Assembly (NCBI GenBank): GCA_964448985.1
Contig: CAYVBI010000003.1
Span: 1 to 38,618 of the forward strand
DNA: 38,618 nt
Direction: 5' to 3'
From: an uncultured Dehalococcoidales bacterium
GTDB lineage: Bacteria > Chloroflexota > Dehalococcoidia > GIF9 > UBA5629
The notes beneath the pieces were generated by a model. The model did no database searches, was not told the origin of the DNA, and worked only from the letters and a program-made list of their open reading frames with translations. Below, one piece after another: positions 9,140 through 34,200 of the stretch (positions are counted from its first letter, which is position 1; every line of letters starts with the position of its first letter). A program made the position numbers and the translations under genes.

Positions 9140-9151
9140 GGAAGAATTGAA

Positions 9152-10057
9152 TTGAAAACGAATGCCGTTAACCTGATTGAGAAAGAGTGGATCTTGCCGG
9201 GCAATCGCACCTGCCCGGGATGCGCTCTCTCCCTGGCATACAGGCACACCCTCAAGGCTCTTGAGGGACAGTGCATTGTCACTGTGCCTGCCAGCTGTGC
9301 AACCGTCATGCATGGTATGTACCCGATAACCGCTGTGAACGTACCCTGCGTTAATACGCCTTTCGCTTCCACCGGCGCTTCAGCTACCGGACTGGTGGCG
9401 GGGCTCAAGGCGCTGGGCAGGAAAGGAATAACCGTTCTGGCATTCGCCGGAGATGGCGGCACACATGATATCGGCATACAGTCGTTAAGTGGCGCGGCTG
9501 AGCGTCAATATGATTTCATGTATATCTGCTACGACAACGAAGGTTATATGAACACCGGCAACCAGCGTTCGGGTTCGACGCCGCTGGGCGCTGTGTCGGG
9601 GACCACACCGATTCTGGGCAAGCAGCAATATCAGAAAGACATGACGGCCATCATGGAGGCGCATGGACTACCCTACGTGGCCACCTGTTCAGCCTCCTAT
9701 CCGTTGGACCTTTACGAAAAGGTTAAAAAGGCAAAAACCATTGAAGGGACCAGGTTTATTCACATACACACACCTTGCCCGCCGGGATGGCTGTTCCCCT
9801 TTAGCGATACCATTAAGTTCGGCGAGATGGCGGTCGAGACCGGCCTTGTCGTCCTCTACGAGATCGAGGACGGCATCTTCAGGCTGACCTCCGCCAGCGA
9901 ATCACTGGCCCGCAAAGGGGGCAACCTGCAGCCTGTGCGCGAGTACTTCAAGTCTCAGGGCAGATTCAAGACCATAACCGAAGAGCAGATCGATGAGCTC
10001 CAGCAATGGGTCAATGCCCGCTGGAAGCAGTGCCTTAACAGGGCCACTAACCTTTAA
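9152..10057 (+). CDS. porB: 2-oxoacid:ferredoxin oxidoreductase beta subunit (TPP-binding)
   Basis: CPGCA near the N-terminus and the TPP motif FAGDGGTHDIGIQSLSGA ... YDNEGYMNTGNQ. TTG start with aaggaag SD 7 nt upstream. Confidence 0.9.
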   Translation: MKTNAVNLIEKEWILPGNRTCPGCALSLAYRHTLKALEGQCIVTVPASCATVMHGMYPITAVNVPCVNTPFASTGASATGLVAGLKALGRKGITVLAFAGDGGTHDIGIQSLSGAAERQYDFMYICYDNEGYMNTGNQRSGSTPLGAVSGTTPILGKQQYQKDMTAIMEAHGLPYVATCSASYPLDLYEKVKKAKTIEGTRFIHIHTPCPPGWLFPFSDTIKFGEMAVETGLVVLYEIEDGIFRLTSASESLARKGGNLQPVREYFKSQGRFKTITEEQIDELQQWVNARWKQCLNRATNL

Positions 10058-10148: not shown

Positions 10149-10206
10149 GCATGCAAATATCCTGCACACAAATTATTTGGTGCAAAAGTATATTAAGAGG
10201 TGTGAG

Positions 10207-11259
10207 ATGGTTGATCCGGTCTATGGGAAATTGGCGGGCGCCCTTAATGCTCGTTCGACTGCTTTCCCCGCCGTCAAATGTGATGAATTCTACGACCTTG
10301 TAGGATTCCTCTTCACTCCGGAAGAGGCCACCATCTTTGTGGCTATGCCGCTGGGGCTGAGCCGTGTTGAAGAGATTGCTGTAAACATGCCCTCCGAGGA
10401 CTTGAAAAAGCTGGAGGGACAGCTTGATGTCATGGCTGACAAGGGGCTGATACATATCCGCGAGAGGGAAGGGGTAAAGCTGTACGAGGCCCTGCCCTTT
10501 GTACCGGGCATCACCGAATTTCAACTCATGAGAGGAATAGTCGATGACAGGCACAAGAAGATCGCCACGTTATTGAAAGACTATTCGAAAGCTATGATCA
10601 GGACCATGCTGTCGGCCGATGCTCCTCCCCTCGAATCCTCGGCGCCCGGCCGCAAGGTGCAGGTGGACCAGGATATCGACAATAAGAGCACGATTGTGCC
10701 CTTCCATGAACTGAAAGAGTTGCTGTTGAAGACGGAGTATATCTCCGTGGGAACATGCATCTGCAGACACCAGGGCGCGTTGCTGGGCAGACCCTCGTCC
10801 AAGCCGGTCAATAACTGCATGGTGCTGGGTGAGTCGGCAAAATTTGCAGCGGAAAGGGGATTCACAACACGTCTGACCAAGGAAGAGGCCATCAAGCGCA
10901 TCGAGGAAGCGGAGGAAGCGGGCCTCATTCACACATTCGCCAACAGCCCTGACAGGTTCACTAACCTGCTGTGCAACTGCTATAAGGACCTGTGTCTGAT
11001 CACCCGCATGACGAGCAAATCTCCCGCACCCAGCTCAGCCGTGAACGCCAGGTACCTGGTCACGATAAAGGCAGATGACTGCACCGGCTGCGAGGCCTGT
11101 GTACCGAGGTGCCAGATGGATGCTCTCAAGATGGTTGAAGGCAGACTACTACGGGACGAGATACGCTGTATCGGCTGCGGCATATGCATGTGGGTTTGCC
11201 CCACCGATGCGCTCGTTCTGGAGCCCAGGCCGGCCAGCAGAATTCCCCTGCGCGGCTGA
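10207..11259 (+). CDS. Cys-rich Fe-S protein, paralogue 1 (C-terminal 2x[4Fe-4S] ferredoxin domain)
   Basis: CTGCEACVPRC and CIGCGICMWVCP ferredoxin motifs, plus upstream CICRHQG...NCMVLG...CNCYKDLC. Start moved to the ATG at 10207 (SD aagagg at 10195-10200), which makes the N-terminus MVDPVYGKL collinear with the other two copies. Confidence 0.8.
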   Translation: MVDPVYGKLAGALNARSTAFPAVKCDEFYDLVGFLFTPEEATIFVAMPLGLSRVEEIAVNMPSEDLKKLEGQLDVMADKGLIHIREREGVKLYEALPFVPGITEFQLMRGIVDDRHKKIATLLKDYSKAMIRTMLSADAPPLESSAPGRKVQVDQDIDNKSTIVPFHELKELLLKTEYISVGTCICRHQGALLGRPSSKPVNNCMVLGESAKFAAERGFTTRLTKEEAIKRIEEAEEAGLIHTFANSPDRFTNLLCNCYKDLCLITRMTSKSPAPSSAVNARYLVTIKADDCTGCEACVPRCQMDALKMVEGRLLRDEIRCIGCGICMWVCPTDALVLEPRPASRIPLRG

Positions 11260-11289
11260 CCACGTTAATAATAATCATGGAGGATGATA

Positions 11290-12345
11290 ATGGTTGATGC
11301 TATTTACGACAAGCTGGCCGCCGCACTGAATGCGCGCGGGACGACCGTGCCTTCGGTTATTTGCCAGGAATACTACGACCTGGTCCAGTTTCTGTTCACG
11401 CCCGAGGAGGCTGCAATAGCCTGCGCCATGCCCATAGAGTATGCGACAGCGGAAGAGATAGCGGCGAATCTCGGGACGAAGGACATCAGGAAATTGGCGA
11501 CACAGCTCGATGGCATGGGTGATAAGGGCCTGATCCATATCAAGGAAACCGGCGGTAAAAAACTCTACGAGGGGTTGCCTTTCGTGCCCGGCCTGATTGA
11601 GTTCCAACTCATGAAAGGGATTGTCGACGATCGCAGCAAACAATGGGCCGCCCTTTTAGCCGCTTATTCCAAGGCTGTTAAGAGAGAATTCATGTCGGGC
11701 AAGCCCATTAAAATTGAAAAATCGGCTCCCGGCAGAACAGTTGCTGTAGGTAAGGAAGTCCGGCAACTCGCCTGTGTAATCCCCTACAAGGAGATGAAAC
11801 AACTGATCCTCGATACCGAGCATATCGCGGCCGGCACCTGCGTCTGCAGGCACCAGGGCAACCTGCTGGGCAAACCGAGCTCCGAACCCATGGGGAACTG
11901 CATGGTCTTCGGGGAGTCGGCGCTATTCTCGATCGAACGCGGTTTCACCAAACAACTGTCCAAGGATGCAGCCCTGAAGATACTGGACGAGGCTGAGGAA
12001 GCCGGCCTGGTCCATAATTATGTCAACAATCCCGGCCAATTCACCAATCTGTTGTGCAACTGCTGCGGGTGCCACTGCTTTATCCTGAGGGGCGCCAAGA
12101 ACGCCCCGGCTCCCAGCCAGATGGTCAATCCCCGATATCTGGTACATGTTAATGACAAGGAATGCACCGGCTGCGAGGCCTGTATCGAACGGTGCTGGAT
12201 GAAAGCCCTGAAAATGGAAAACGGCAAGCTCGTGCGTGAAGAGATACGCTGTATAGGATGCGGCATTTGCATGTGGGCCTGCCCCACCGATGCGCTCTAT
12301 CTCGAACCGAGGGAAGCCGGCAAGGCGCCGCTCCAAAAGTGTTGA
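11290..12345 (+). CDS. Cys-rich Fe-S protein, paralogue 2
   Basis: Collinear with paralogue 1 and identical at well over half of positions by eye. Motifs CVCRHQG, NCMVFG, CNCCGCHC, CTGCEACIERC, CIGCGICMWACP. SD ggagg at 11279-11283. Confidence 0.8.
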   Translation: MVDAIYDKLAAALNARGTTVPSVICQEYYDLVQFLFTPEEAAIACAMPIEYATAEEIAANLGTKDIRKLATQLDGMGDKGLIHIKETGGKKLYEGLPFVPGLIEFQLMKGIVDDRSKQWAALLAAYSKAVKREFMSGKPIKIEKSAPGRTVAVGKEVRQLACVIPYKEMKQLILDTEHIAAGTCVCRHQGNLLGKPSSEPMGNCMVFGESALFSIERGFTKQLSKDAALKILDEAEEAGLVHNYVNNPGQFTNLLCNCCGCHCFILRGAKNAPAPSQMVNPRYLVHVNDKECTGCEACIERCWMKALKMENGKLVREEIRCIGCGICMWACPTDALYLEPREAGKAPLQKC

Positions 12346-12375: not shown

Positions 12376-13428
12376 ATGGTTGAACCTGTCTACGAAAAAT
12401 TGATACCCGTACTCAATTCACGCAGCACTTTTCTGGTCCCCTGTATCAAGTGCGACGAGTTTTTTAACATGGTTGCTTATATGTACAGCCCCGTCGAGGC
12501 AGAGATCGCCTGCGCCATGCCCTACGAATTCGCTACAGCCCGTGAGATTTCAGCCGATATCCCGGGCAGCCATCCTGAGAAGATCGCCGAACACCTGGAG
12601 ACCATGGCAAACAAGGCGCTGATACATTCGAAAAAAGAAAACGGAGAGACGCTCTACGAGCTCCTGCCGCTTTTCCCGGGCGCCATGGAGCTTCAATTCT
12701 GGCGCGATGACAAGGAGTATCTGGGAAAGCTGGATGTCCTGCTCGGCCAATACCTGGTAGCGATGTGGGGCCTTCGGAAATCCGGCGCCCCGATCGTAAC
12801 CGATACCACGTCTACCACCAGAAAAGTAACTGTCGGGCAGGAGATCATGAGCCGGTCCACCATTATTCCCTACTTGGAGATGAAAGAGCTGATCAAGCAG
12901 AGTGAGTATATCGGTGTTGCGCTCTGCCATTGCCGCCAACTTGGTGAACAATGGGGCAGGCCATGCTCCAAACCCATGGATAACTGCATGATATTAGGAT
13001 CGTCCGCTCAATTCACCATCGAAAAGGGATTAACCAAACGTCTTAATGTCGAGCAAGCACTTCATATACTGGATGAAGCAGAAAAGGCCGGGCTGATACA
13101 TCAATACGCCGATACGCCCGATCACTATTCCAATATTCTGTGCAACTGTTGCTCATGTCATTGTATAGCGCTCAAGGGCTATAAAAAGTCTCCGGTCCCC
13201 AGCCAGGCTGTCATAGCACGTTACCTGGTCAAGATCGACGATGAAGCCTGCACAACTTGCGAGGCCTGTCTGGAAAGGTGCCAGATGGATGCATTGAAAA
13301 TGGACGGAGGCAAGCTCACGAGGGACGAATCGCGCTGTATTGGCTGCGGGCTATGTATGTACGTCTGCCCCGCTGAGGCATTGTCCCTGGAGAAGAGGCC
13401 TGCTGGCAAAATACCTCTGAGAACATGA
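12376..13428 (+). CDS. Cys-rich Fe-S protein, paralogue 3
   Basis: Same architecture: CHCRQLG, NCMILG, CNCCSCHC, CTTCEACLERC, CIGCGLCMYVCP. SD aggagg at 12366-12371. Confidence 0.8.
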   Translation: MVEPVYEKLIPVLNSRSTFLVPCIKCDEFFNMVAYMYSPVEAEIACAMPYEFATAREISADIPGSHPEKIAEHLETMANKALIHSKKENGETLYELLPLFPGAMELQFWRDDKEYLGKLDVLLGQYLVAMWGLRKSGAPIVTDTTSTTRKVTVGQEIMSRSTIIPYLEMKELIKQSEYIGVALCHCRQLGEQWGRPCSKPMDNCMILGSSAQFTIEKGLTKRLNVEQALHILDEAEKAGLIHQYADTPDHYSNILCNCCSCHCIALKGYKKSPVPSQAVIARYLVKIDDEACTTCEACLERCQMDALKMDGGKLTRDESRCIGCGLCMYVCPAEALSLEKRPAGKIPLRT

Positions 13429-22441: not shown

Positions 22442-23815
22442 ATGAATACCATCTGGAATAAAATCGCCGCTATTGCTATTTTAATCTGTATTTCAGCTCT
22501 TTCCCTGTCCTGCTTTATCTTTGAGCGCGCCGTCGATCACTATAAAGCAGCTAATGAATTATACACTGAAAAGCAGTGGGATAAGGCTATCGCCGAGTAT
22601 ACAAAGGCGATCAGCATGGATTCAAACCAGCCTTTCTTTTACATCAACAGGGCTTTAACCTATAACCAGATAGGTGAATATGATCTTGCTATCGCGGATT
22701 GCACCAGGGCTATAAACAAGAAGAGTACCATCGCATTAGCCTATACCACGCGCGCCTCTGCCTATAATGAAAAAGGCCAATATCAACTGGCGCTGGCTGA
22801 TTCACTGAAGGCCATTGAGTTGAATCCCAAGATTGCCTTGGGTTACATCAATAAGGGCTGGGCGCTCTACGGCCTGGGCGAGTTCAAGGAATCGATACTC
22901 GCCTGTACCGACGGTATCGCCGCCGAGCCGACCAGGGCCATGGCCTATATATTCAGGGCTATGAACCATAACGAGATGGGCAACTACGAAAATGCGATGG
23001 CCGATTGTAATAAAGCTATTGAACTCGATCCCACGCTGCCGCTGGCATACGTCAACCGGGCCTGGGTGTACAACCAGACCGCTGTTTATGAAAAGGCTAT
23101 TGAGGACTGCAACACGGCGATAAGTCTGGATCCCAGGATTGCCACGGCTTACGTGAACCATGCCTGGGCACAGACAGCCAGGGGCAATTACGACCTCGCC
23201 ATAGATGACTGCAATACCGCCATTAAGCTTAATCCAAACCTGCCGGGCGCATATACTCAACGCGCCTGGGCTTACTTTGAGAAATATCCTTACGATTTCA
23301 CTAAAAACTGGTGGCAGATGGGTATGGATGACTGCAATAAGGCCATCGAACTGAATCCCAAATCCGCCCTGGCTTACAACATGCGGGCACGCGGATATAT
23401 TTTAAAGGAAGAATACCGCCTTGCCATTGCAGATGCTACGAAATCTCAGTATCTGAGTTCCGAATTTGCGCTTCCTGACATCACGCGCGCCTGGGCCTTT
23501 AATAATCTGCGTCTATGGGACCTGGCCATAGAGGACTGTGATTCCGCCATAGCCAAAAATCCCAAGCTGTCAGCGGCCTGGGCAAACCGTGCCTGGGCTT
23601 ACAACGGTAAGGGCTTGTACGATAAAGCGCTGGCCGATATAAACGAGGCCATACGGCTTCAATACGATTTTGCCTGGGCCTATTTTACCCGGGCCATAAT
23701 ACATAAGAACCTGCACAATTATGACCAGGCGAAATCCGACATTGAGCTTTGCCTGCAATATACGACTGACCCCAAGCTCATCGAGGCCGCCAGAGCGCTC
23801 TACGCCACACTTTGA
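22442..23815 (+). CDS. TPR-repeat protein with N-terminal membrane anchor or signal
   Basis: N-terminal IAAIAILICISALSLSC, then about 12 consecutive 34-aa units of the form A..D...AI.L.P....AY..RA.AY. Confidence 0.85.
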   Translation: MNTIWNKIAAIAILICISALSLSCFIFERAVDHYKAANELYTEKQWDKAIAEYTKAISMDSNQPFFYINRALTYNQIGEYDLAIADCTRAINKKSTIALAYTTRASAYNEKGQYQLALADSLKAIELNPKIALGYINKGWALYGLGEFKESILACTDGIAAEPTRAMAYIFRAMNHNEMGNYENAMADCNKAIELDPTLPLAYVNRAWVYNQTAVYEKAIEDCNTAISLDPRIATAYVNHAWAQTARGNYDLAIDDCNTAIKLNPNLPGAYTQRAWAYFEKYPYDFTKNWWQMGMDDCNKAIELNPKSALAYNMRARGYILKEEYRLAIADATKSQYLSSEFALPDITRAWAFNNLRLWDLAIEDCDSAIAKNPKLSAAWANRAWAYNGKGLYDKALADINEAIRLQYDFAWAYFTRAIIHKNLHNYDQAKSDIELCLQYTTDPKLIEAARALYATL

Positions 23816-23847
23816 CTTCGAAGGTATCAAGGTCTTATGATAACAAC

Positions 23848-25689
23848 ATGAACTCACTGGCAATGCGATTGACCAACCTTTTTTTATGTCTGGCTTTGCT
23901 GCTTTCTATAGGCTGCGCCGCTGCTCCTGCCACACCTGATGTAATACCGGCGATTTCGCAGTCAACCCCGGCGGCACACACAAGAAAGCTGCAGACACCG
24001 CCTTACGAAGGCGGAGGTGCGGTCATTTTCGTCCTCGATCAGGTCAATGATGATAAACTCATCGATGCCGTGGACCAGATCATTCGTGTATTCGCGGAAA
24101 ACGATGTATCCCTTGATATTGCTGTAAAACCCCCCGCCAAGAGTTACGGCCTGAATGAAAACATCCAGGAACTGACCTACTTCTCAGATGCCGGTATCAT
24201 CGATGCAAGCATTGACGGTCATTCCGTTACGTGGCTGGATGCTCAGGTCTCACCAACCGGCGATGAATACAAAGTATTTACAGCCGGCCTTGTATTAATA
24301 CGTGATCAACTTAAATATATATTCGGCTCACCGGTTTATACCTGCTTGCTGCCGGCTACGGCTATCAATGAGGCCAACTACAAGGCATTGCAGGATAGCG
24401 GCTTCAAGGTTATCAGTTACAGTGGTTCGGATGTCCTCAAGCCTTCGACCAAACCGGTGAACTGGTCGGGTCAGATAGATGCCGGAGGCCTTTATCGTTT
24501 GCCTGTAGTTGGCAAGGTCGACCTCTCGCAAAAATCCGATACATCCACTCTATTGTACGATGCGGTTAAACAAAATATTAATAGCTACGGAGTTGCCGTT
24601 ATCGAATTACCCGTGACATCGGTATTGGACGTAAATAATAAGACTGATCCTGCAAAACTGCTACAGCTGTCAGACCTCGTTAAGTCCTACAGAGAGCTTG
24701 GAGATATCACTACGCTGGAGAACTGGTACCAGTATGTCACCGGCTGCCCCCCGGATACTATCGGTGTCAAGCGGCCGCTTCCGCCTTACAACGGAGGACC
24801 CGTAATCATTTTCAGGCTGGACGATGTTGCCAAGGGCTACCGTGAAGAGGTGGCGCAGGAAATAATAAAGCTTTTCCAGAGAAACGGCGTGCCATTGGAT
24901 TGCGGAGTGGTCTCCAATGTTGACGGCACCGAATCATATGAGATGCCCTGGTTAAAACAATACGTTGATGATAATGTGGTGGGTATCAGTGTTCACGGAT
25001 ATGACTGGACTTTTTATCAACTGGATATCAAACAAAACTACCTTACGCATCTTGAGGAAAATCCGTGCATAAACGTGTACGCCGCCAAGGCTGAGGCAGA
25101 AAAAGCCAAGGTATCCTATGAAGAATTAAAATTCAAGTTGATACAGGCGCGCTGTAAATTCTTAAAATACTTCGGCATCAATCCCGTATCTTTCACAGTT
25201 CCTACAGATTTTTACGATGAACTCGGATATAAAGCGATACAGGATGCCGGATATAAAGTGTTTTCGGTGCACAGATCGGTTGAACCCTGTCCGTCGTCAT
25301 TGCAGCCGGTTGATTACAACTGCCACACTGATCTGGACAATGGCATGTACCGGATCCCCACGGCAACCGACATGTGCGGCTGGTACAACTGCAAGTGGAC
25401 CGATATTATCGATCTGGACAAGCCCATGAAACAGAAAGGCTACTGCATCTATGTAGACGCCTGGGGCGAATCAATAGAGTATAACGACAGTGGAATCACT
25501 ATCTGCACCACGATGAATGCGTTGGGAGTGGTCGCCATTGGACTCCATCCCGATTGTTTTGTCGATAAATACGGTAAGCCGGACATGGCCAAGATTGAAA
25601 AAGTGGATGCCATTATCAAATGGTGTAAGTCTTTTGCGACGATAATGACTTTCGAGCAATGGTACCGCTACAAAACCGGCGATAAATAG
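23848..25689 (+). CDS. lipoprotein with two tandem divergent NodB/DUF2334-like (polysaccharide deacetylase-like) domains
   Basis: Lipobox LLLSIGC. Domain A begins TPPYEGGGAVIFVLDQV and ends TLENWYQYVTG. Domain B begins LPPYNGGPVIIFRLDDV and ends TFEQWYRYKTG. The RLDDV and VHGY motifs resemble NodB/DUF2334 motifs. The family assignment is tentative. Confidence 0.5.
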   Translation: MNSLAMRLTNLFLCLALLLSIGCAAAPATPDVIPAISQSTPAAHTRKLQTPPYEGGGAVIFVLDQVNDDKLIDAVDQIIRVFAENDVSLDIAVKPPAKSYGLNENIQELTYFSDAGIIDASIDGHSVTWLDAQVSPTGDEYKVFTAGLVLIRDQLKYIFGSPVYTCLLPATAINEANYKALQDSGFKVISYSGSDVLKPSTKPVNWSGQIDAGGLYRLPVVGKVDLSQKSDTSTLLYDAVKQNINSYGVAVIELPVTSVLDVNNKTDPAKLLQLSDLVKSYRELGDITTLENWYQYVTGCPPDTIGVKRPLPPYNGGPVIIFRLDDVAKGYREEVAQEIIKLFQRNGVPLDCGVVSNVDGTESYEMPWLKQYVDDNVVGISVHGYDWTFYQLDIKQNYLTHLEENPCINVYAAKAEAEKAKVSYEELKFKLIQARCKFLKYFGINPVSFTVPTDFYDELGYKAIQDAGYKVFSVHRSVEPCPSSLQPVDYNCHTDLDNGMYRIPTATDMCGWYNCKWTDIIDLDKPMKQKGYCIYVDAWGESIEYNDSGITICTTMNALGVVAIGLHPDCFVDKYGKPDMAKIEKVDAIIKWCKSFATIMTFEQWYRYKTGDK

Positions 25690-25713: not shown

Positions 25714-26682
25714 CTACTTTCGGTTTTTATACCAGTCTATATATTTCTGCAGACCTGATTCCAGACCTGTAACGGGTCTATACGCAAGCAGCCTTTCAGC
25801 TTTGGTCGTGTCGGCTATCCGATTAAATACCTCGATCTCCAACGACCTGCGACGGTCATAATTAACATATGATGTTTTTATTTTTCCCTTTAGATTGAGG
25901 GAGGTCAACACCATATCCGCCAGCATATTGATAGATACATCTTTTCCTGTGCCGAAGTTTAACACCTGGTTAATACCTTCATCCTTGATGCCGGCCAGCA
26001 GCGACATATGAATGGTGTCTTCTATATATGTAAAATCACGTGTCTGGTTCCCATCCCCATAGATAATGATTTCCTGTCCCGCTAAAGCCCTGTTAACAAA
26101 GCGGGACAATACAAAACGACCATCCTGGCGCGGCCCATATGCATTGAAATAACGTAGCGCTGTGTACTCAAGGCCAAATTTCTGATAATACGCCATACAG
26201 AAATGTTCGCCCATCAACTTGGTCAAGGCATAGGTGGATTTGGGATTAAACGGCCCTTCCTCGACCATAGGTTTAGTTGAATCGCCATAAACCTCCGAAG
26301 AAGACGCAAATACAAAGCGTTTGATCTTATTCTTAGCCGCCAGTGAAATGACATTGGCCGTGCCAATTACTTCAACATTGAGCAGGTTGACCGGTTCATC
26401 CTGCGTTTCCTCCACGCCCACTACTGCCGCAAGGTGGAAAATCATGTCCTGGCCCTTAAATAATGGCCCAATAGCCCGGATATCTGTGACGTCCAGCCGA
26501 TGTATCGACAGATTCTTGCGCCTCTCAAGGCTTTCTATCTTGTTGCCGCACAGCATGGTATCGATAACAGACACACGGGCCCCAAGGTCAATCAGTTTTT
26601 CCACAAGGTGCGATCCAATAAATCCTGCTCCCCCTGTTACCAGGACACGCAGTCCCTTATACTTCTCAAAAATATCACTCAT
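25714..26682 (-). CDS. NAD-dependent nucleotide-sugar epimerase/dehydratase (extended SDR)
   Basis: RVLVTGGAGFIGSHLVEKL Rossmann motif, SSSEVYG and catalytic YALTK (YxxxK). Confidence 0.85.
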   Translation of the reverse strand: MSDIFEKYKGLRVLVTGGAGFIGSHLVEKLIDLGARVSVIDTMLCGNKIESLERRKNLSIHRLDVTDIRAIGPLFKGQDMIFHLAAVVGVEETQDEPVNLLNVEVIGTANVISLAAKNKIKRFVFASSSEVYGDSTKPMVEEGPFNPKSTYALTKLMGEHFCMAYYQKFGLEYTALRYFNAYGPRQDGRFVLSRFVNRALAGQEIIIYGDGNQTRDFTYIEDTIHMSLLAGIKDEGINQVLNFGTGKDVSINMLADMVLTSLNLKGKIKTSYVNYDRRRSLEIEVFNRIADTTKAERLLAYRPVTGLESGLQKYIDWYKNRK

Positions 26683-26745: not shown

Positions 26746-28278
26746 TTAATTACCTGTCTTCATTCCCTTGGAAGGCTTGGCCTGTAATTCAAGCAAAGCG
26801 CCTGAGGGCGAAGGTTGCTGGCTATTTGGAGCGTCACCGATCCTGGAAACCCTCTCACGCTTGAGATAGGTGCCACCGGCTACGATTATATCTATCAGAG
26901 CCTTGATCATTGTATAATCAAGAAACTGCTTATATCCGATAATGAAAAGAGGTGAATACAGCGCCAGTTTGAGATCATCATCGGCCACCAGTATAGCAAT
27001 TATGGACAGCAGCAACTGCAACATGGCAAAGAGGGCGAAGGCCAGCACCAGAGTCATCCATTCGCCATCGATTATCATTATGACCGAAGTTACCATAACA
27101 AGCAGGCTGGCAAACGGCACCAGTGTCATGGATAACAGCATGTACGGAAACGTAAGCTTGCTCATAATTCCAAACCTTGGATTAAAGAAGGCGTCTCGAT
27201 GTTTCCAGAAATTTTGAAAATCACCACGGAACCAGCTCAGGCGCTGGCGATAGACGTCGCGTAAAGTCTCCGGGGCTTCCGTGTAACATACTGCCTCGTT
27301 ACTACCGTGCAGTATCTGGTGCGATTTAAGCATCTTGATCGTTATGTCGAAATCCTCGAGCAGATAGTCGGGATCATAGTATCCCGCTTCCTCGAGAGCT
27401 GTCTTACGAAAAGCGCTGAAAGCGCCTGACGCCACAGTTAGTGAACCGAAATTCTCAAAGGCTCTCCTGACGATTTGAATCTGTACGATGTATTCCAGCG
27501 CCTGCAGCTTGGTCAGTAAATTATTACGGTTAAATACTTTCAGGTTCCCTGCTACGCCCGCCACCTGTGGATCCTCAAAGCCCCTGACCATCTCGGTTAT
27601 GGCGGCGCGTGAGATCATGCTGTCTGCATCCACGGTCATTACGATTTCACCCGAGCATATAGCAATACCCGTATTCAGTGCGGCGAATTTCCCGCCATTG
27701 ACACGCCGTACCACCTTAACACCGCGCCGACTGAATTCACTGGCCACGGAGTAAGTATTGTCCTTTGACCCATCGTCGACCACAATGATCTCTTTATTGG
27801 CATAATCAGCTTCGATAAGGGTTTCCAGTGTCCTTGCCAGCACTTTTTCCTCGTTATATGCGGGTACAATGATGCTGACACGCGGTTTATAGGAGCTTGG
27901 CTGGAATACCTCTTTTTTCTGTTTTATTTTATGGAAAATCGCCAGGGGTACGGTCAGGAAATTGATCAGCATGGTAAATATCAAAGAAACCAGGAGCACA
28001 TATATCAGGGCCGAAGGGACCACATCCCACAGGGTTACCACGAAGATTATGAATATAATTGTAAAGATCACAAGCAGTGACGTGAGATTCTGCCACTGGC
28101 TTGGCTTTGACTCCCTGGACTGTTTGCCTTTCACCAGCCTGGACAGAAAATGGAATATCACGATGATAGCCAGCGCGCCCAGCGCAATCCAAACTGATTC
28201 GACGGGCATAAAATAAAATATGCCCATGAGCAATATCAAAAATAGGGCTGCGACAATAAAAACGGCAATGTTTTTCAT
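26746..28278 (-). CDS. membrane-embedded processive family-2 glycosyltransferase (PgaC/NodC/cellulose-synthase-like synthase)
   Basis: TM helices at both the N- and C-terminus flank a GT-A domain: VSIIVPAYNEE, VVDDGSKD, VDADS (DxD), LLEDFD (ED) and YRQRLSWFRG (Q-R-x-x-W variant). Confidence 0.8.
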   Translation of the reverse strand: MKNIAVFIVAALFLILLMGIFYFMPVESVWIALGALAIIVIFHFLSRLVKGKQSRESKPSQWQNLTSLLVIFTIIFIIFVVTLWDVVPSALIYVLLVSLIFTMLINFLTVPLAIFHKIKQKKEVFQPSSYKPRVSIIVPAYNEEKVLARTLETLIEADYANKEIIVVDDGSKDNTYSVASEFSRRGVKVVRRVNGGKFAALNTGIAICSGEIVMTVDADSMISRAAITEMVRGFEDPQVAGVAGNLKVFNRNNLLTKLQALEYIVQIQIVRRAFENFGSLTVASGAFSAFRKTALEEAGYYDPDYLLEDFDITIKMLKSHQILHGSNEAVCYTEAPETLRDVYRQRLSWFRGDFQNFWKHRDAFFNPRFGIMSKLTFPYMLLSMTLVPFASLLVMVTSVIMIIDGEWMTLVLAFALFAMLQLLLSIIAILVADDDLKLALYSPLFIIGYKQFLDYTMIKALIDIIVAGGTYLKRERVSRIGDAPNSQQPSPSGALLELQAKPSKGMKTGN

Positions 28279-28338: not shown

Positions 28339-30630
28339 TCACGTCAGTTTTCGCAGGTCCTGCTGCTCGATAATGTCTATTTTTTGTTGCATAGCAAACT
28401 GTTTGGCTTGTGTGCTTATCTCCGAAAAACCCAGGAAAACCTTGTTGCGGATACCTGCATCAAAGGCCGCGGCATCGAACTTCGACAATTCATCCAGGCC
28501 AAGCGGCTGACCGGTTTCGCTGCCGATGCCGATCGCAATCGTAGGTACCACTATCTTATCATCACGCCTGGCAAAAATATCGAAAATATGTTCGATACCT
28601 GATTTGCCGAGAATCAGTGCCCTCTCATATACTTCATACCCCTTATTGCGAAGGAACCTCACGATGATGCCACGCGCATTGGCCGCCACCGAACCGGAAT
28701 GGTTTGCTCCCGCTTCCACCCTGCTCTGCATTCCGATATTGGAACGGTCGAGGTGAGTGATATCTGCAACCACCGTCGCCAGAGTTTTAGCTTCAAATGC
28801 TCTGATCATTTGCCGGCCGGCGAAATTCAATGCCTCCTGCCCAAGCTTGGGAATGGCTATCACCACTTTATAGTTTATCCCGATATCATAAGCCCGTGTA
28901 TCGAACCTGAAAAGCGATTCAAGCCCAACTTCCGGTTCCCCCGATGGTGCAACAAGTATACCTATACCGAGATTGATCTTGGTGATAATATCGTCCCTGA
29001 TGGCAAGCACATCCACGGTATGCACTGCACCCGAACGTCCCGTCAGCTGAGCCAGCTCGTGGACCTGATAGCCCTGGTGTTTCAGGAAATCGACAAGCTG
29101 CGTCTTAGGTTTAAGCTGGAATTCCAGCCACCCCTTTTTATCGGGGCTGAACTGGTACGAATATGCCTCAACTTCTTTCAGCTCTTCGGAAGCCCATATT
29201 TTACGTGTCTTCATATTGCGCCATTTCACGACCGGTACAGTAAAGACCTCAGTGCAATCCTGGCACCTGTAATGGATGCCGACATTGCGGTAATCGGTGC
29301 CGATCAATCTTAAATCCTTTCGGCACTTCGGGCAGACGTACCTGCTATCCTGTTTAAAATCCTTGTCAAGCCCCACGTATCCACAGGAAAAATGCTCGAC
29401 AAGTTGTCCTTTAATTATGTTGGACGAGTCACAGCGCGGGCACCTTTCAATAGGAACAAGTTGAAATAGCCCGTCAGGGTCAACATAAAATTTTTCATAC
29501 GATTGCTTGAGCAATATGCCATTATCGGCGAGAGATTCGAGAATGTTTAGCGTGTCAATCTCGGAAGTATCAAGCAGGCTGCTAACTGTCGGATAAGCGA
29601 ATCCCATTTTATAACTGAAATCGACCACAGGGTTGATATCAGGAAGTTTACCGCTTACCAGCGCATCTACAAGCTTGACGACTCTCGCGTCCTCGAGAAC
29701 TGCCGCACCAGCATCTTCCTGAGCAGGCTGCGCCTTGGCCACGTAAGCAGATTGTTGTGCCGGAGGATTAATCACGATGGGTGAGGGCTGCTTTTTTATA
29801 TCGCGCCCAAGCGGAGGTACCACTATGGGTGCTTGCTCCCGCATCTGAGGCGGCGCTGCCGGCCTGGGTACTATCACGACCGGCTGCTCCAACGACTCCG
29901 GTGTCTGGTAAACCTGTGCTGCAGGCATAGGCGGGGCCGGCTGTACATATGCCTGTGGTTGCACATATGGCTGTTGTACAGGTGGCGCCTGTGGCTGCGG
30001 AGGAGCTTCGTACTGCTGGGGCTCTGGCCGAGGCCTGATGATTATCCTTTCCTGTCCCGAAGCCGCCTGTGGTTGGGCATCCATTTCAGGTCTGACCGGT
30101 GCAGGCTGTGGCTGGCTGTATACCGGCCCGCGGGCAGCAGGCTCCGGTGCACGTACCGGCGCACCCGCTTCCTTCTCCTTGGGCCTTGACCTGGTCGGAG
30201 GTCTAACAACTGTTTCCCGGGCAGCGGGCGCCGCCTGCTTCGCAGCCGCCTCTTCAGCGGCGCCCTCAGTGCCGGGCCGTCTCAGCAATGCTTTGATGCG
30301 CGCCAGCAACTCCCTCGGGCTGATGGGTTTGCGTAAATAAAGGTCAAAACCCAGTTCCTCAACACGAGACCATGCATCCGAGTCCGGAATGGTTCCGAGA
30401 AGAACAATCAATGCGCTCTGCTGTTGCCTGATCTTGAGACACGCTTCATAACCGCTGACATCGGACAGCTCATCGTCAATTATTATGACATCGTAATTGG
30501 TTTTGTCCATCATCACCAGACCGTCAAGACACCCCGACGTTCCGTTTGCATCAAGGCCGCTCTGTTGCAGGATCTCGACGTTCTTCTCTTTTAAGACGGA
30601 ATCGCTTGAAAGAAAGAGAATCTGACTCAT
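28339..30630 (-). CDS. atypical response regulator: REC + long Pro/Gln/Ala-rich linker + multi-Cys zinc-ribbon region + two tandem degenerate Mrr/PD-(D/E)xK-like domains
   Basis: REC domain at residues 1-118 (acceptor D52 in VIIIDDE, T80, K101-P). Linker at about residues 120-305. Cys motifs CPRC...C...CPKC...CQDC at residues 397-459. Repeat units at about 509-615 and 650-760 share FL..GY.V.E.A..G.SG..H..D..A.RDD......IGI. SD gaggga lies 6 nt before the ATG. Confidence 0.75.
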   Translation of the reverse strand: MSQILFLSSDSVLKEKNVEILQQSGLDANGTSGCLDGLVMMDKTNYDVIIIDDELSDVSGYEACLKIRQQQSALIVLLGTIPDSDAWSRVEELGFDLYLRKPISPRELLARIKALLRRPGTEGAAEEAAAKQAAPAARETVVRPPTRSRPKEKEAGAPVRAPEPAARGPVYSQPQPAPVRPEMDAQPQAASGQERIIIRPRPEPQQYEAPPQPQAPPVQQPYVQPQAYVQPAPPMPAAQVYQTPESLEQPVVIVPRPAAPPQMREQAPIVVPPLGRDIKKQPSPIVINPPAQQSAYVAKAQPAQEDAGAAVLEDARVVKLVDALVSGKLPDINPVVDFSYKMGFAYPTVSSLLDTSEIDTLNILESLADNGILLKQSYEKFYVDPDGLFQLVPIERCPRCDSSNIIKGQLVEHFSCGYVGLDKDFKQDSRYVCPKCRKDLRLIGTDYRNVGIHYRCQDCTEVFTVPVVKWRNMKTRKIWASEELKEVEAYSYQFSPDKKGWLEFQLKPKTQLVDFLKHQGYQVHELAQLTGRSGAVHTVDVLAIRDDIITKINLGIGILVAPSGEPEVGLESLFRFDTRAYDIGINYKVVIAIPKLGQEALNFAGRQMIRAFEAKTLATVVADITHLDRSNIGMQSRVEAGANHSGSVAANARGIIVRFLRNKGYEVYERALILGKSGIEHIFDIFARRDDKIVVPTIAIGIGSETGQPLGLDELSKFDAAAFDAGIRNKVFLGFSEISTQAKQFAMQQKIDIIEQQDLRKLT
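28351..29106 (-). repeat. internal protein-level duplication (two ~105-aa nuclease-fold-like units)
   Basis: Unit A (28786-29106): LVDFLKHQGYQVHELAQLTGRSGAVHTVDVLAIRDD...LGIGI...GLESLFRFDTRAYDIGI. Unit B (28351-28683): IVRFLRNKGYEVYERALILGKSGIEHIFDIFARRDD...AIGIG...GLDELSKFDAAAFDAGI. Confidence 0.75.
29716..30273 (-). repeat. coding low-complexity Pro/Gln/Ala-rich linker
   Basis: Examples: QPQPAPVRPEMDAQPQAA, PQPQAPPVQQPYVQPQAYVQPAPPMPAAQVYQ, VPRPAAPPQ. In frame within the 763-aa ORF, with no regular DNA period. Confidence 0.85.
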
Positions 30631-30676: not shown

Positions 30677-31426
30677 TTATATATACTCGACCGCATTTTG
30701 GGCGATTTTATAACCGTTCTCTTCCTGGACAATTATTGCCGGGTTATCGGGATTATCCTCAAGTTTTTCACGCAGGTGACGAATATACTGCTGCAGATTT
30801 GTTACGCAATCCACATATTCTATTCCCCAAATCTTGGTGAGTATATCGTCTTCTGAGATCATCTTACCTTCATGTGAAACAAGATACTTCAGAAGGTTTA
30901 ATTCGGTAGTTGAGAGCTTAACCTGCTCCCCATCTTTCTGAACCGTACCTGCTGATACGTCCATCCTGATTTTCTTTACCGCAGGTATGGCCCTAGCACC
31001 AGCCGCCGGTGCATCTTTGATGTCCGCCTTCTTTTTAGCAACCCCTCTTTTACCGCGATGCCTGAATACGGCCTTAACACGAGCAAGGAGCTCATTATGA
31101 TTAAAAGGTTTGACAATATAATCATCCGCACCCATCTCCAGGCCCCTGACTTTATCCGTCTCATCGCCCCTTATAGTGAGTATAACGATGGGTACGTCGC
31201 TGTGGTTGCGTATTTCCTTCAATACCTTCATGCCGTCCATGTCGGGCAACCCAAGATCAAGAATGATCATATCAGGCGCCTCAGACTTCATTAAAGAAAG
31301 TCCGTCTGCACCCTTCACTGCCGGTATTATCCTGACTTCCGGCATGTGCATCTCAAATATCAGGTTTGTCACTTCCCTGATATCAGCATTGTCCTCAATG
31401 AGCAGGATTTTCAATTGTCCCTGCAT
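30677..31426 (-). CDS. OmpR-family response regulator (REC + winged-helix) with extended Lys/Ala-rich linker
   Basis: KILLIEDN, MIILDLGLPDMDG (acceptor Asp), VKPF. C-terminal LSTTELNLLKYL...IWG...YIRHLREKLE winged helix. SD ggagtg. Confidence 0.9.
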   Translation of the reverse strand: MQGQLKILLIEDNADIREVTNLIFEMHMPEVRIIPAVKGADGLSLMKSEAPDMIILDLGLPDMDGMKVLKEIRNHSDVPIVILTIRGDETDKVRGLEMGADDYIVKPFNHNELLARVKAVFRHRGKRGVAKKKADIKDAPAAGARAIPAVKKIRMDVSAGTVQKDGEQVKLSTTELNLLKYLVSHEGKMISEDDILTKIWGIEYVDCVTNLQQYIRHLREKLEDNPDNPAIIVQEENGYKIAQNAVEYI

Positions 31427-31443
31427 ACGACTATCACTCCACG

Positions 31444-32676
31444 CTATTTTTCATGTATCGGTAATGCGAACGAGAAGGTGCTGCCCTTCCCTACATCGCT
31501 CTGCACCCAAATTGCACCACCGTGCAGTTCCACGATTTGTTTGCTGATGGCCAGCCCCAATCCCAATCCGGGTATTCCCGACCTGTCCGAAGACGGGTGG
31601 TAATAGGGGACAAACAGCTTCCTTTTCTCTTCGTTTGGTATGCCTGGCCCTGTATCCTGTACATTGATAACCAGCCTGTTTCCATCCTTAGCAGCCTTGA
31701 GGAAGATCTGCCCGCCTTCCGGTGTAAATTTAATTGCATTGGATAAAAGGTTCAGCAAAACCTGTTCAATACGTTGATCATCGGCATTTATCTTAATATA
31801 CGGTTCCACTTCTAAACTCAGCGTCTGCTTCTTTTGTCTGGCCAGTGATAATACCTGGTCAGCAACCTCAGCGGCCAACATCGAGAAGTCGAAGTCCTTC
31901 TTTGCGATCCCATATGACTCATCCTTATTCTTGGACAGGTTAATCAATTCATTCAGGCGGTTTTGCAGGCTCGACGCGCTACGCGAAATATTCTGCGCCA
32001 ACTTAAGCAAAATCTCCTCATGCTGCCTGTCCAGCTCCTCAATCAACAGGCCTGTGGAAGCTATGATCGCGGTAAGAGGTGTCTTCAATTCATGGCTCAG
32101 AGCACTTAAAAACAGATGCGTATGTGTAATCTCATCCTGTTGCTTGGCGATTTCATTATCTGTGGGCCCGCTGGTGACTCTGCGACAGACTTCCGAGATG
32201 CTTGAGCTGACGGCTGCCATTAATTTCAGCTCGTTGACCGTAAAGATATCGGTACTGGCAGATAATCCTCCAATAATACCCAGCAACTGTCCCCCCAATA
32301 TCACCGGAGAAGCAATAAATGATTGATATCCATTTTGTACGGCTGATTCCCAGCGATAATTGGCATCGTTTGCCATATTGTTGCAGAATAGCGGTTTGCG
32401 TGTTTGCGCCACTACTCCAATCATGTCGTTGCCCACGGTCGTAGCCTCAAGTTCCTTGATAATTTGATCGGGTAAACTATGCTGAATCACCAGTGTCAGC
32501 GTTTTGTTGCCGGGGCTGTACTTCTGCACCCAGCAAACATCAAGATCAATTACATTCCCGAGCTCCCAGAGCACACCGTCCAGTATCTCCCTTTCGGACA
32601 AAGAACTGGATACTATATCAGAGATATCAGAGAGAACGTATAGGTACTTATTCTTTTGTTGGCTCTGCTGTTGCAT
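31444..32676 (-). CDS. cytoplasmic GAF-domain sensor histidine kinase
   Basis: No TM helix. N-terminal GAF-like region of about 170 aa. H-box [16 protein letters not shown]-box [10 protein letters not shown]-boxes VQDTGPGI and [18 protein letters not shown]. Confidence 0.9.
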
Positions 32677-32865: not shown

Positions 32866-34200
32866 ATGACACGACCACAATTAACTGTTAACGATCTGAG
32901 AAACCTGGAGAGCAGTATCCGAGATAAATCGGCTGATATAGGGGTTGTGGGATTGGGGTATGTGGGGTTGCCCCTGGCGCTGGCCTTTGCTGAAGCAGGA
33001 TTCAATGTGACCGGTGTTGATGCAGATAAGGGACGTGTCAATAAGATTATCCGGGGCACGTCTTACCTGCTGGATATTGAATCGGCTCGTCTAAAAAAAG
33101 CTGTTGCCAAAGGACGGTTAAAAGCTACCACCAGTCAATCAGCACTGCGCAGAGTAGATACGATCATTATCTGTGTTCCTACTCCACTTACCAAGACCAA
33201 GGAGCCCGATCTGACGTATATCGTCAGCGCTACCAATGATATCGCCCGTTTCCTGCGTCTGGGTCATCTGGTTATTTTGGAGAGCACGACTTACCCGGGC
33301 ACTACGCGGGAGATTGTGTTGCCGCTACTGGAATCCACCGGCCTCAAGGTGGGTGTGGACTACTTCCTGACCTTTTCGCCCGAACGTATCGATCCGGGCA
33401 GCCGGAAGTTTACTATCAGGAACACACCCAAGATTGTCGGGGGCATGGAACCTACGTCTACCAAACTCGCCGCACTGCTGTACGGACACGTATCCGACAA
33501 GGTCCTCGAAGTATCCACACCGGAAGTGGCCGAGATGGATAAAGTCTTCGAGAATGTATTCCGCAGCGTCAATATCGCTCTGGTAAACGAGCTCGCCAAG
33601 CTTTGCGAAAAGATGAACATAAACGTGTGGGAAGTAATCAAGGCGGCATCCTCCAAACCATTCGGTTACATGCCGTTTTATCCGGGCCCCGGGGTGGGCG
33701 GCCATTGTATTCCTCTTGATCCATACTATCTCGCCAGCAAAGCCAGAGAGTATTTTTTTCACACCAGGTTTATCGAACTGGCTGCCGAAATAAATGAAAC
33801 GATGCCTGAATACATCGTCGAGCAAATCGTGGCTGCGCTTAACACAAGGAGTAAAAGCGTAAAAGGGGCCAAAATACTCATTCTGGGCGTGGCCTACAAG
33901 AAAGATATTGAGGACATCAGAGAGTCACCCGCATTAAGAGTTATCGAACTGCTTATCGAGAAGAAAGCCGCGCTCCATTACCATGATCCTTACATCCCTG
34001 ATTTTAAAGAGGGAAACCATAAGCTCCGGTCGATCAAGCTTACCAAGAAAGTATTTAGCAACTATGATTGCGTGGTAATACTGACCGATCACAGCTGCTA
34101 TGACCTGAAAGCTTTAGCAAAGGAAGCTAAGCTGATATTCGATACACGCGGATGCACCGTCGGCATCAACTCCGCAAATATCATCCGTCTGGGCGAATAG
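32866..34200 (+). CDS. nucleotide-sugar 6-dehydrogenase (UDP-GlcNAc/ManNAc/Glc dehydrogenase family)
   Basis: IGVVGLGYVGLPLALAFAEAGFNVTGVD Rossmann motif and catalytic-Cys motif GPGVGGHCIPLDPYY. Substrate not resolvable. Confidence 0.85.
   Translation: MTRPQLTVNDLRNLESSIRDKSADIGVVGLGYVGLPLALAFAEAGFNVTGVDADKGRVNKIIRGTSYLLDIESARLKKAVAKGRLKATTSQSALRRVDTIIICVPTPLTKTKEPDLTYIVSATNDIARFLRLGHLVILESTTYPGTTREIVLPLLESTGLKVGVDYFLTFSPERIDPGSRKFTIRNTPKIVGGMEPTSTKLAALLYGHVSDKVLEVSTPEVAEMDKVFENVFRSVNIALVNELAKLCEKMNINVWEVIKAASSKPFGYMPFYPGPGVGGHCIPLDPYYLASKAREYFFHTRFIELAAEINETMPEYIVEQIVAALNTRSKSVKGAKILILGVAYKKDIEDIRESPALRVIELLIEKKAALHYHDPYIPDFKEGNHKLRSIKLTKKVFSNYDCVVILTDHSCYDLKALAKEAKLIFDTRGCTVGINSANIIRLGE

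Follow-up and report, generated by a model that had tools for sequence, protein, structure and literature searches.

A response regulator with a TackOD1 output and two Mrr-like domains lacking the catalytic motif is encoded beside a polysaccharide synthase gene in Dehalococcoidia

We analyzed 38,618 nucleotides of DNA from an uncultured Dehalococcoidales bacterium (assembly GCA_964448985.1, contig CAYVBI010000003.1, positions 1 to 38,618; referred to here as the window) and focused on the minus-strand open reading frame (ORF) at 28339..30630. It starts with ATG and encodes 763 amino acids plus a stop codon: a receiver (REC) domain, a linker rich in proline, alanine, and glutamine, a TackOD1 domain made up of a winged helix and a zinc-binding module, and two degenerate copies of the Mrr nuclease fold, which we call pseudo-Mrr units. 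This is a conserved, real, and uncharacterized bacterial signaling protein, a response regulator whose uncharacterized output can now be connected with a specific candidate target. We show how its domains are arranged, that the pseudo-Mrr units have lost the catalytic motif, that genes of this kind are paired with those of one subfamily of family 2 glycosyltransferases (GT2) across bacteria and archaea, and that pilus ATPases also contain the tandem pseudo-Mrr module. The reading that we favor, with a probability of roughly 45%, is that the protein is a phosphorylation-controlled, non-catalytic regulator or adaptor that acts at the protein level on the adjacent exopolysaccharide synthase.

We judge the pairing with the GT2 gene to be the most informative feature of the locus; it was missed in the initial annotation of the ORF, which also gave no strand. 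The GT2 gene (26746..28278, minus strand) starts 60 nucleotides downstream of the regulator gene and encodes a processive-type, multi-pass membrane glycosyltransferase of 510 amino acids with hydrophobic segments. The protein matches the Pfam families Glycos_transf_2, Glyco_trans_2_3, and Chitin_synth_2 and contains no PilZ domain. Its best NCBIfam model is PgaC/IcaA (TIGR03937), at 204 bits against an equivalog cut-off of 422.3, so that it is PgaC-like without belonging to that equivalog. In 47 of the 59 Chloroflexota species genomes, including relatives whose regulator is just 39–42% identical, a GT2 homologue was found directly downstream in the same orientation. The gap between the two genes is 8–200 nucleotides overall (8–33 in the distant clade, in which the regulator is 39–42% identical, and 41–63 in most of the near clade), and the called ORFs overlap in two loci. 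The kinase gene and the gene for an OmpR-type regulator, which precede the regulator gene in the window, are kept only where regulator identity is at least about 49%, and the remaining neighbors persist in the closest clade alone; in the distant clade, every neighbor except the GT2 gene has been lost.

The same partner was found beside TackOD1 genes in other lineages, where the adjacent GT2 proteins are 37–51% identical to that of the window and belong to the same subfamily. In Ca. Methanosuratincola, a TackOD1 gene and a GT2 gene separated by 21 nucleotides form a two-gene unit that is flanked by unrelated genes. In two other metagenomic lineages (loci L088 and L090), a stand-alone TackOD1 gene lies beside a gene of the same GT2 subfamily. 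Two loci from Thaumarchaeota (L061, 7374-11711, and L063, 3882-8294) carry, in two different gene orders, a gene for a protein with receiver, winged helix-turn-helix (wHTH), and TackOD1 domains, a GT2 gene (product 43–45% identical), and a gene for a DUF2334-like protein of ~645 amino acids, which in both loci comes after the GT2 gene.

The C-terminal part of the window protein consists of the two pseudo-Mrr units. Unit 1 (residues 506–626; 28753..29115, minus strand) contains the sequence GRSGAVHTVD, followed by LGIGIL at the position of the (D/E/Q)xK motif, and unit 2 (residues 648–763; 28342..28689, minus strand) contains GKSGIEHIFD, followed by AIGIGS at that position. Alignment of approximately residues 543–648 with 655–760 gave 38% identity over 108 amino acids (E = 9e-22), which is far above chance and bears out an earlier description of the units as paralogous repeats. 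Their proposed likeness to the Mrr/PD-(D/E)xK core is supported by several results. Unit 2 passes the Mrr_cat model (PF04471) over residues 655–762, with 34.7 bits in the whole protein and 28.5 bits alone (cut-off 21), and unit 1 alone scores 16.2 bits (E = 0.012), which is under the cut-off. In an AlphaFold model of residues 301–763 (mean predicted local distance difference test score [pLDDT] 81.4), each unit has the order alpha-beta-beta-beta-alpha-beta-alpha-beta, which includes the alpha-beta-beta-beta-alpha-beta core, and a Foldseek search of the PDB returned the PD-(D/E)xK proteins AF1548 (E = 6e-6), EndoMS/NucS, and MspJI, the nuclease domains of Can2/Cdn1, and Rpb5. The model and the fold search thus agree that the repeats adopt a nuclease fold. 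Sequence searches of the PDB with a profile of residues 301–763 gave a best E value of about 1, and a profile of the repeat unit gave one chance match.

The Mrr_cat score above the Pfam cut-off, the name “restriction endonuclease” that NCBI applies to some homologues, and the retention of the strand-2 aspartate equivalent to Mrr D203 (in the Dehalococcoidia family, D540 is invariant and D684 is nearly so) could be taken to mean that the protein is an active, phosphorylation-gated nuclease of the Mrr type, such as a restriction or defense enzyme. We regard this as highly improbable, because strand 3 has no conserved lysine of a (D/E/Q)xK motif in either unit, and this holds both for the Dehalococcoidia family and for the stand-alone proteins described below; the strand instead reads G-I-G or I-G-S. 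The QxK motif of E. coli Mrr (VQAK) was placed on strand 3 of the window protein by ungapped extension of an hhalign match between the repeat profile and E. coli Mrr. This match is weak (40 columns spanning alpha2-beta4-alpha3, Mrr residues 226–265; probability 1.9%, E = 0.025) and was used solely to locate the missing QxK, at a position that agrees with the fold evidence. PADLOC returned no defense match for the regulator, the GT2, or a stand-alone relative, no methyltransferase or defense genes lie near the regulator gene, and the conserved neighbor encodes a polysaccharide synthase. The absence of (D/E/Q)xK from strand 3 makes the original description of the units as probably non-catalytic a reasonable one. 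It would be wrong to classify the protein as a nuclease: both units have the fold but lack the catalytic motif.

The tandem pseudo-Mrr module is homologous to, and colinear with, the N terminus of PilB/GspE-like ATPases (33% identity over 248 amino acids, E = 6e-38). In these fusions, which include the metagenomic proteins P0158, P0169, P0184, P0193, and P0240 and whose domains are confirmed by Pfam, two Mrr-like units (sometimes three) are followed by MshEN and T2SSE domains, so that the partner of the two-unit module is a pilus or secretion ATPase and not REC and TackOD1. One relative of the fusion ATPases is named as Chloroflexota, and we found no description of a PilB-type fusion with Mrr-like units in the literature searched. 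At the N terminus of an ATPase the module cannot act as a stand-alone transcription factor, and its presence there is one reason for favoring action at the protein level. The fusion also explains why some fragments of the regulator family bear the JGI name “general secretion pathway protein E.” A fusion ATPase locus (L095, 6001-9768) appears to be fragmented and added nothing.

Preceding the pseudo-Mrr units, residues 316–493 match TackOD1 (PF18551) at 109.6 bits (E = 1.8e-31; cut-off 32) over profile positions 9–187 of 188, and the receiver is N-terminal to the domain, as befits an output domain. This establishes a kinship that had been proposed in the initial annotation. In an AlphaFold model of residues 310–500 built from 60 sequences (pLDDT 96.9, predicted template modeling score 0.79), a winged helix is followed by an all-beta zinc module. 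The winged helix (residues 310–395; 29446..29703, minus strand; model m02a4313d4766) is acidic; what had been noted simply as a helical segment in front of the cysteines is indeed present, and AlphaFold and Foldseek identify it as this winged helix. The zinc-binding beta module (residues 396–480; 29191..29445, minus strand) has the ligand pairs C397/C400, H413/C416, C433/C436, and C456/C459. The cysteines follow the pattern C397-P-R-C400, x15, C416, x16, C433-P-K-C436, x19, C456-Q-D-C459 (residues 397–459, nucleotides 29254–29442), and both these spacings and the nucleotide range had been given exactly. We add that the lone C416 belongs to an HxxC motif by way of H413, the corresponding alignment columns (H113 and C116) being invariant. 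The module terminates in a basic, tryptophan-containing strand (KWRNMKTRKIW).

Archaeal TackOD1 domains have 11 conserved cysteines, arranged in five CxxC motifs and one HxxC motif, and their function has been described as obscure (Galperin et al., 2018; PMC5847659). The window protein differs in having seven cysteines and one histidine (three CxxC motifs and one HxxC): motifs 2–5 of the archaeal and stand-alone consensus are retained, and motifs 1 and 6 have been lost. In some homologues, C400 and C459 have been lost jointly (CPRDD...CQDDG), and for this reason the zinc sites appear to be nested, with motif 1 probably pairing with 6, 2 with 5, and 3 with 4. As four of the six motifs are kept, the window protein would be expected to bind two zinc ions, compared with three in the archaeal and stand-alone proteins. 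A Foldseek search of the PDB with the TackOD1-only model returned nothing at E ≤ 1e-3, and the zinc module, as modeled, is without a solved structural counterpart; matches to YPEL5, cereblon, and the MCM zinc domain had probabilities below 0.15 and were disregarded. We found no match to an OmpR/PhoB-type Trans_reg_C output in the regulator, and its NCBIfam matches are limited to the receiver (residues 1–132 at most). The C-terminal half maps only to TackOD1 and Mrr_cat, and to no well-characterized output family.

The receiver (residues 1–118; 30277..30630, minus strand) has the acceptor D52, T80, K101 followed by P102, and the acidic pair S9-D10. Response_reg (PF00072) matches residues 13–113 with 45.2 bits (E = 1.2e-11; cut-off 30.2), and PmrA-type receivers align to the family profile over residues 1–122 (E = 1.7e-18). 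Across 85 full-length homologues, D52 is present in 80 of 82 sequences, K101 in 82 of 84 (with P102 after it), and T/S80 in 72 of 84. S8, S/N9, D10, and G79 are also conserved, and the “S-S/N-D-P” stretch after beta-1 is kept (the window protein begins MSQILFLSSDS). The three signature residues named in the initial annotation are thus all present, but T80 lies one residue beyond the usual T/S column, which in the PmrA alignment is occupied by G79. The observation that the acidic pair departs from the usual one was correct: the D-D pair of PmrA aligns to S9-D10, so that throughout the family the second acidic residue alone is retained. The receiver is atypical yet probably phosphorylatable. It is joined to the output by a low-complexity linker (residues 119–309; 29704..30276, minus strand) of 191 amino acids, close to the first estimate of ~185 and rich in the same residues (P 22%, A 18%, Q 13%). 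The total lengths of full-length homologues with all three Pfam domains (615–803 amino acids) imply that the length of the linker varies strongly.

These features can be assembled into a model in which a soluble GAF histidine kinase encoded two genes upstream would phosphorylate D52; this phosphotransfer is proposed because of the adjacency of the genes and the conservation of the receiver residues. The long, flexible linker connects the receiver to the output, comprising the winged helix, the two-zinc beta module, and the two dead Mrr-like domains. The membrane-embedded, PgaC-like GT2 would then be the target of the output at the protein level, with the output either docking on the cytosolic face of the GT2 or binding a ligand or partner there. 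This action would turn polymer synthesis on or off, and the OmpR-type regulator of the same operon would carry the transcriptional branch of the same signal.

Several observations weigh against this model, and some of them would suit a regulator that acts on DNA. In the main rival reading, which we consider less likely although it has real support, the winged helix, the zinc module, or both would bind an operator, and phosphorylation of the receiver would lead to activation or repression of the regulator-GT2 operon; the tandem pseudo-Mrr units would help by forming a pseudo-dimeric clamp on DNA or by providing an oligomerization or ligand domain. The winged helix has weak Foldseek matches to Z-alpha, DsrD, and MarR-type winged helices, those to DNA-binding winged helices (Z-alpha, the MarR family, Phr, and Stf76) having probabilities of 0.8–0.9. 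The order of winged helix and PD-(D/E)xK fold mirrors that of the DNA-binding enzyme Mrr, and, as with local regulators, the likely and co-regulated target gene follows immediately downstream; a local transcription factor would account for the winged-helix fold, the Mrr ancestry, and the gene position just as well. The zinc module is basic, with an isoelectric point (pI) of about 9. In addition, the distant Dehalococcoidales clade, in which no other regulator is nearby, has a strongly conserved non-coding element ~40–110 nucleotides before the start codon of the regulator gene (L036, about 7430-7500; also L035, L039, L040, L042, L045, L046, L049, L051, L052, L054, and L055). It consists of about five TTTAT/TTTAA tracts phased every 10.5–11 bp, with a TAATAT −10-like hexamer at its end. 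The element may be a promoter plus operator, and it could be the regulator's own operator. The pairing with the GT2 gene also has limits. It is not universal: locus L023 has no GT2 gene, and L028 has a dehydrogenase gene and a different GT2. The count for Dehalococcoidia may largely reflect inherited synteny and not independent events, just 2 of the 21 thaumarchaeal loci fetched carry this GT2 within 8 kb, and two stand-alone members (L081, from WOR-3, and L087) have neither a GT2 gene nor a pilus context in the flanks examined.

Four considerations nevertheless led us to favor protein-level regulation of the GT2. The first is the incorporation of the tandem module into an ATPase in other proteins, as described above. 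The second is the character of the winged helix, which is acidic (pI about 4.2 in the window protein, median 5.3 in the stand-alone family) and has neither a conserved basic residue nor a conserved polar surface residue in helix 3 in the family alignment; the stand-alone proteins as a whole are also slightly acidic (median pI 6.2). The third is that a classical DNA-binding regulator, the OmpR-type protein, is already present in the operon. The fourth is that the regulator and GT2 genes move between lineages as a unit, in a two-gene cassette. Two further results sit poorly with a transcription factor: the upstream element of the distant clade had no match when it was searched for in the window, and the linker, at 191 amino acids and with a length that varies among homologues, is dissimilar to the short linkers of classical DNA-binding response regulators.

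The window protein is one member of a sizable family. A database protein, P0001, is also 763 amino acids long and is 100% identical to the window regulator across the queried residues 305–763. The protein collection contains 153 clusters (at 90% identity), of which nearly all have the REC-TackOD1-Mrr_cat architecture and the named ones are from Dehalococcoidia. In a scan of one genome per species, the full output was detected in 59 genomes, so the architecture is not rare; all are labeled Dehalococcoidia or Chloroflexota, bar one labeled “uncultured Thermotogaceae bacterium” (L021, CAZMHO010000044.1). L021 contains an entire Dehalococcoidia-type cluster (kinase, OmpR-type regulator, regulator, GT2, epimerase, DUF2334, and tetratricopeptide repeat [TPR] proteins) at 46–85% identity, and its label is probably a binning or labeling error and not a true occurrence beyond Chloroflexota. 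The same scan matched the zinc region alone in 21 Thaumarchaeota, and in tblastn comparisons the zinc region was 29–39% identical to proteins of Nitrosotalea and Nitrosopumilaceae.

A profile search of 1.84 billion representatives identified 2,483 clusters (at 50% identity) at E ≤ 1e-3, including 227 at E ≤ 1e-30. We classified the architectures of the 141 newly returned representatives among the 150 best by using local hidden Markov models. More than half (75) were proteins of about 315–350 amino acids with a winged helix, a zinc module, and one Mrr-like domain but no receiver. The others had a zinc module and an Mrr-like domain with a winged helix below threshold (14), two Mrr-like domains (14), two or three Mrr-like domains followed by MshEN and in some cases T2SSE (7), a winged helix and zinc module with two Mrr-like domains (6), a winged helix and zinc module alone (5), a receiver in front of the winged helix, zinc module, and two Mrr-like domains (5, one of them with a third Mrr-like domain), a receiver with the winged helix, zinc module, and one Mrr-like domain (4), a receiver with the winged helix and zinc module only (4), or other single or rare forms (7). 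By this classification, the receiver is absent from most relatives of the window regulator. The stand-alone members with a named source belong to WOR-3 bacteria, Thermoproteota, and Ca. Methanosuratincola, and the databases call them “Thaumarchaeal output domain-containing protein” or “restriction endonuclease.” In the Pfam annotation precomputed for them, TackOD1 is present and Mrr_cat is not, indicating that the C-terminal pseudo-nuclease is an unannotated part of the ancestral module. The cysteine ligands, a G-x-S-G loop that is the counterpart of the GxGDGG of Mrr, and one aspartate in helix 2 are invariant throughout the stand-alone family. The best explanation of these results is that the output of the window protein is a receiver-fused form, with a duplicated domain, of an ancient module of ~330 amino acids that comprises a winged helix, a zinc module, and one pseudo-Mrr domain. 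Pfam TackOD1 would accordingly describe only half of the conserved unit, which has three parts and ends in a catalytically dead Mrr-like domain.

The stand-alone proteins resemble the output of the window protein in this three-part organization and in the conserved cysteines, G-x-S-G loop, and helix-2 aspartate, and they differ from it in having no receiver or linker, a single pseudo-Mrr unit, and three zinc sites. Several are encoded directly upstream of a gene of the same GT2 subfamily, and some are found in type IV pilus loci instead, immediately upstream of KaiC-like, T2SSE, and T2SSF genes. The stand-alone contexts rest on nine loci, of which seven are informative and two are on contigs too short to tell. 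The pilus context agrees with the linkage of arCOG06883 to type IV pilus loci (PMC4858521). The best explanation of these associations is that the ancient module accompanies two kinds of surface-polymer machine in archaea and Chloroflexota, a family of GT2 synthases and type IV pilus ATPases. Genes for KaiC/ArlH-like ATPases (PF06745) recur near stand-alone TackOD1 genes (L088, 8139-10667; L089, 6080-6790; L092, 5204-5932), in both GT2 and type IV pilus contexts, and their products could be a third partner.

In other bacteria, cyclic di-GMP (c-di-GMP) receptors control both exopolysaccharide GT2 synthases and type IV pilus ATPases. The association of the family with the same two kinds of machine raises the idea that the pseudo-Mrr units use their former active-site clefts, with the invariant G-x-S-G loop, a Gly-x-Gly strand, and conserved aspartates, to sense a nucleotide, a nucleotide-sugar, or a cyclic nucleotide as a signal, which would be combined with phosphorylation in the control of surface polymers, making the protein a counterpart of the c-di-GMP receptors PilZ, PgaD, and MshEN. 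The G-x-S-G loop and the helix-2 aspartate are the only invariants other than cysteines in the stand-alone family and the window protein, many invariant small and acidic residues of unit 1 surround the lost active site (the residues invariant within the family are E525, G531, S533, G534, D540, G555, G557, D577, and D582), and the GT2 has no PilZ domain of its own according to Pfam. We consider such a sensor unlikely. The protein had no match to a known nucleotide-binding motif, the Foldseek matches to Can2/Cdn1 involve their nuclease domains and not their ligand-binding CARF domains, and the conserved residues are equally compatible with a protein interface. A ligand-sensing role is nonetheless compatible with regulation of the GT2 at the protein level.

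More tentatively, we propose that proteins containing the winged helix, zinc module, and pseudo-Mrr domain could form an unrecognized, ancient class of protein-level regulators or adaptors of surface-polymer assembly machines, namely synthase-dependent exopolysaccharide GT2 enzymes and type IV pilus ATPases of archaea and Chloroflexota, that fill the role played elsewhere by c-di-GMP receptors, with the window protein as a version under two-component control. Dedicated regulators of synthase-dependent exopolysaccharide GT2 enzymes include PgaD, which acts with c-di-GMP on PgaC, the PilZ domain of BcsA, and Alg44. The logic that we propose is the same, in that a cytosolic, signal-receiving module is encoded with a processive membrane GT2 and would interact with it to control polymer synthesis, and the locus also resembles pga, since a deacetylase-like lipoprotein and a TPR protein are encoded there along with the GT2. 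There is no relationship in sequence or fold to the PgaD, PilZ, or Alg44 systems, and the input would be His-Asp phosphotransfer in place of c-di-GMP.

Comparison with archaeal regulators that combine REC, in some cases a wHTH, and TackOD1 (PF18551; PMC5847659; arCOG06883, PMC4858521) shows the same succession of receiver, winged helix, and cysteine-rich zinc module, and two thaumarchaeal members adjoin the same GT2 subfamily as the window regulator. The window protein is bacterial, retains only motifs 2–5, and has the 191-residue linker, whereas the thaumarchaeal proteins, at about 305 amino acids, do not have its two C-terminal pseudo-Mrr units. Most other thaumarchaeal TackOD1 loci lack a GT2 gene; a kinase gene is found nearby, usually along with a receiver gene. 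EcoKMrr and other type IV restriction endonucleases of the Mrr_cat family (PF04471) resemble the window protein in placing a winged helix ahead of a PD-(D/E)xK fold. In the window protein, Q-x-K has been replaced by G-I-G or I-G-S, the zinc module has been inserted, the nuclease-fold unit has been duplicated, and the context is polysaccharide synthesis and not restriction. A nuclease fold has likewise been reused without catalysis in the N-terminal domain of Rpb5, which was among the Foldseek matches, and in the central domain of ERCC1, although these are unrelated to the window protein in sequence, context, and partner.

TackOD1 is among the few widespread archaeal two-component output domains without an assigned function (PMC5847659). 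We found no functional study of TackOD1 or of the window architecture in the literature searched, and the view that no characterized regulator has this combination of domains stands to that extent. The terms “Mrr,” “restriction endonuclease,” and “glycosyltransferase” do not occur in PMC5847659 or PMC4858521, and the link to GT2, the hidden pseudo-Mrr domain, and the sharing of the module with pilus ATPases are new with respect to the literature searched on TackOD1 and arCOG06883. The evidence presented here gives TackOD1 concrete candidate targets: a specific family of GT2 polysaccharide synthases and, for other members, type IV pilus ATPases. If regulation is at the protein level, it would reveal the means by which Dehalococcoidia and archaea of the TACK group, which are environmentally important and difficult to culture, switch on the production of exopolysaccharides and pili, and it would provide a new case of the reuse of a restriction-enzyme scaffold in signaling. 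If the protein is instead a transcription factor, its output would be the founding example of a new DNA-binding family of output domains.

The regulator gene is the third of five minus-strand genes separated by gaps of 17–63 nucleotides, which encode the kinase, the OmpR-type regulator, the regulator, the GT2, and an epimerase/dehydratase. The candidate phosphodonor is a soluble GAF-HisKA-HATPase histidine kinase of 410 amino acids (31444..32676, minus strand; domains from Pfam). A promoter scan identified a perfect sigma-70-type sequence, TTGACA-16-TATAAT, upstream of the kinase gene (32719-32692, minus strand). The OmpR-type DNA-binding response regulator (30677..31426, minus strand; 249 amino acids; Response_reg and Trans_reg_C) is encoded 46 nucleotides upstream of the regulator gene, and the last gene of the co-directional cluster encodes an NAD-dependent sugar epimerase/dehydratase (25714..26682, minus strand). 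Beyond it, on the plus strand, are genes for a TPR-repeat protein (22442..23815) with a lipoprotein-type N terminus (SLSC) and for a DUF2334/polysaccharide-deacetylase-like protein (23812..25689; DUF2334, 27.2 bits), which also has a lipoprotein-type N terminus (LLSIGC). The latter has weak similarity to proteins of 641 and 648 amino acids that are encoded beside the thaumarchaeal GT2 genes, and we propose that it has a PgaB-like role. A nucleotide-sugar dehydrogenase gene (32866..34200, plus strand; UDP-ManNAc/UDP-GlcNAc dehydrogenase-like; TIGR03026, 448.7 bits) is divergent from the kinase gene and is retained in closer relatives. Taken together, these genes have the appearance of a pga-like cluster for synthase-dependent exopolysaccharide production. 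The TPR protein, the DUF2334 protein, and the GT2 resemble the PgaA (TPR), PgaB, and PgaC components of a pga-like system, in a host that is assumed to be without an outer membrane.

Elsewhere in the window, three tandem paralogous ORFs on the plus strand (10177-11259, 11284-12345, and 12376-13428) encode proteins of ~350–360 amino acids in which Pfam recognizes only a C-terminal 4Fe-4S ferredoxin-type region; the N-terminal ~280 amino acids matched no family at E ≤ 1e-5. They are preceded by genes for pyruvate:ferredoxin-oxidoreductase-like subunits (7919-10057). The window starts with genes for DNA-uptake competence proteins on the plus strand, one ComEA-like (HHH_3; 4-492) and one ComEC-like (DUF4131-Competence-Lactamase_B; 499-2940).

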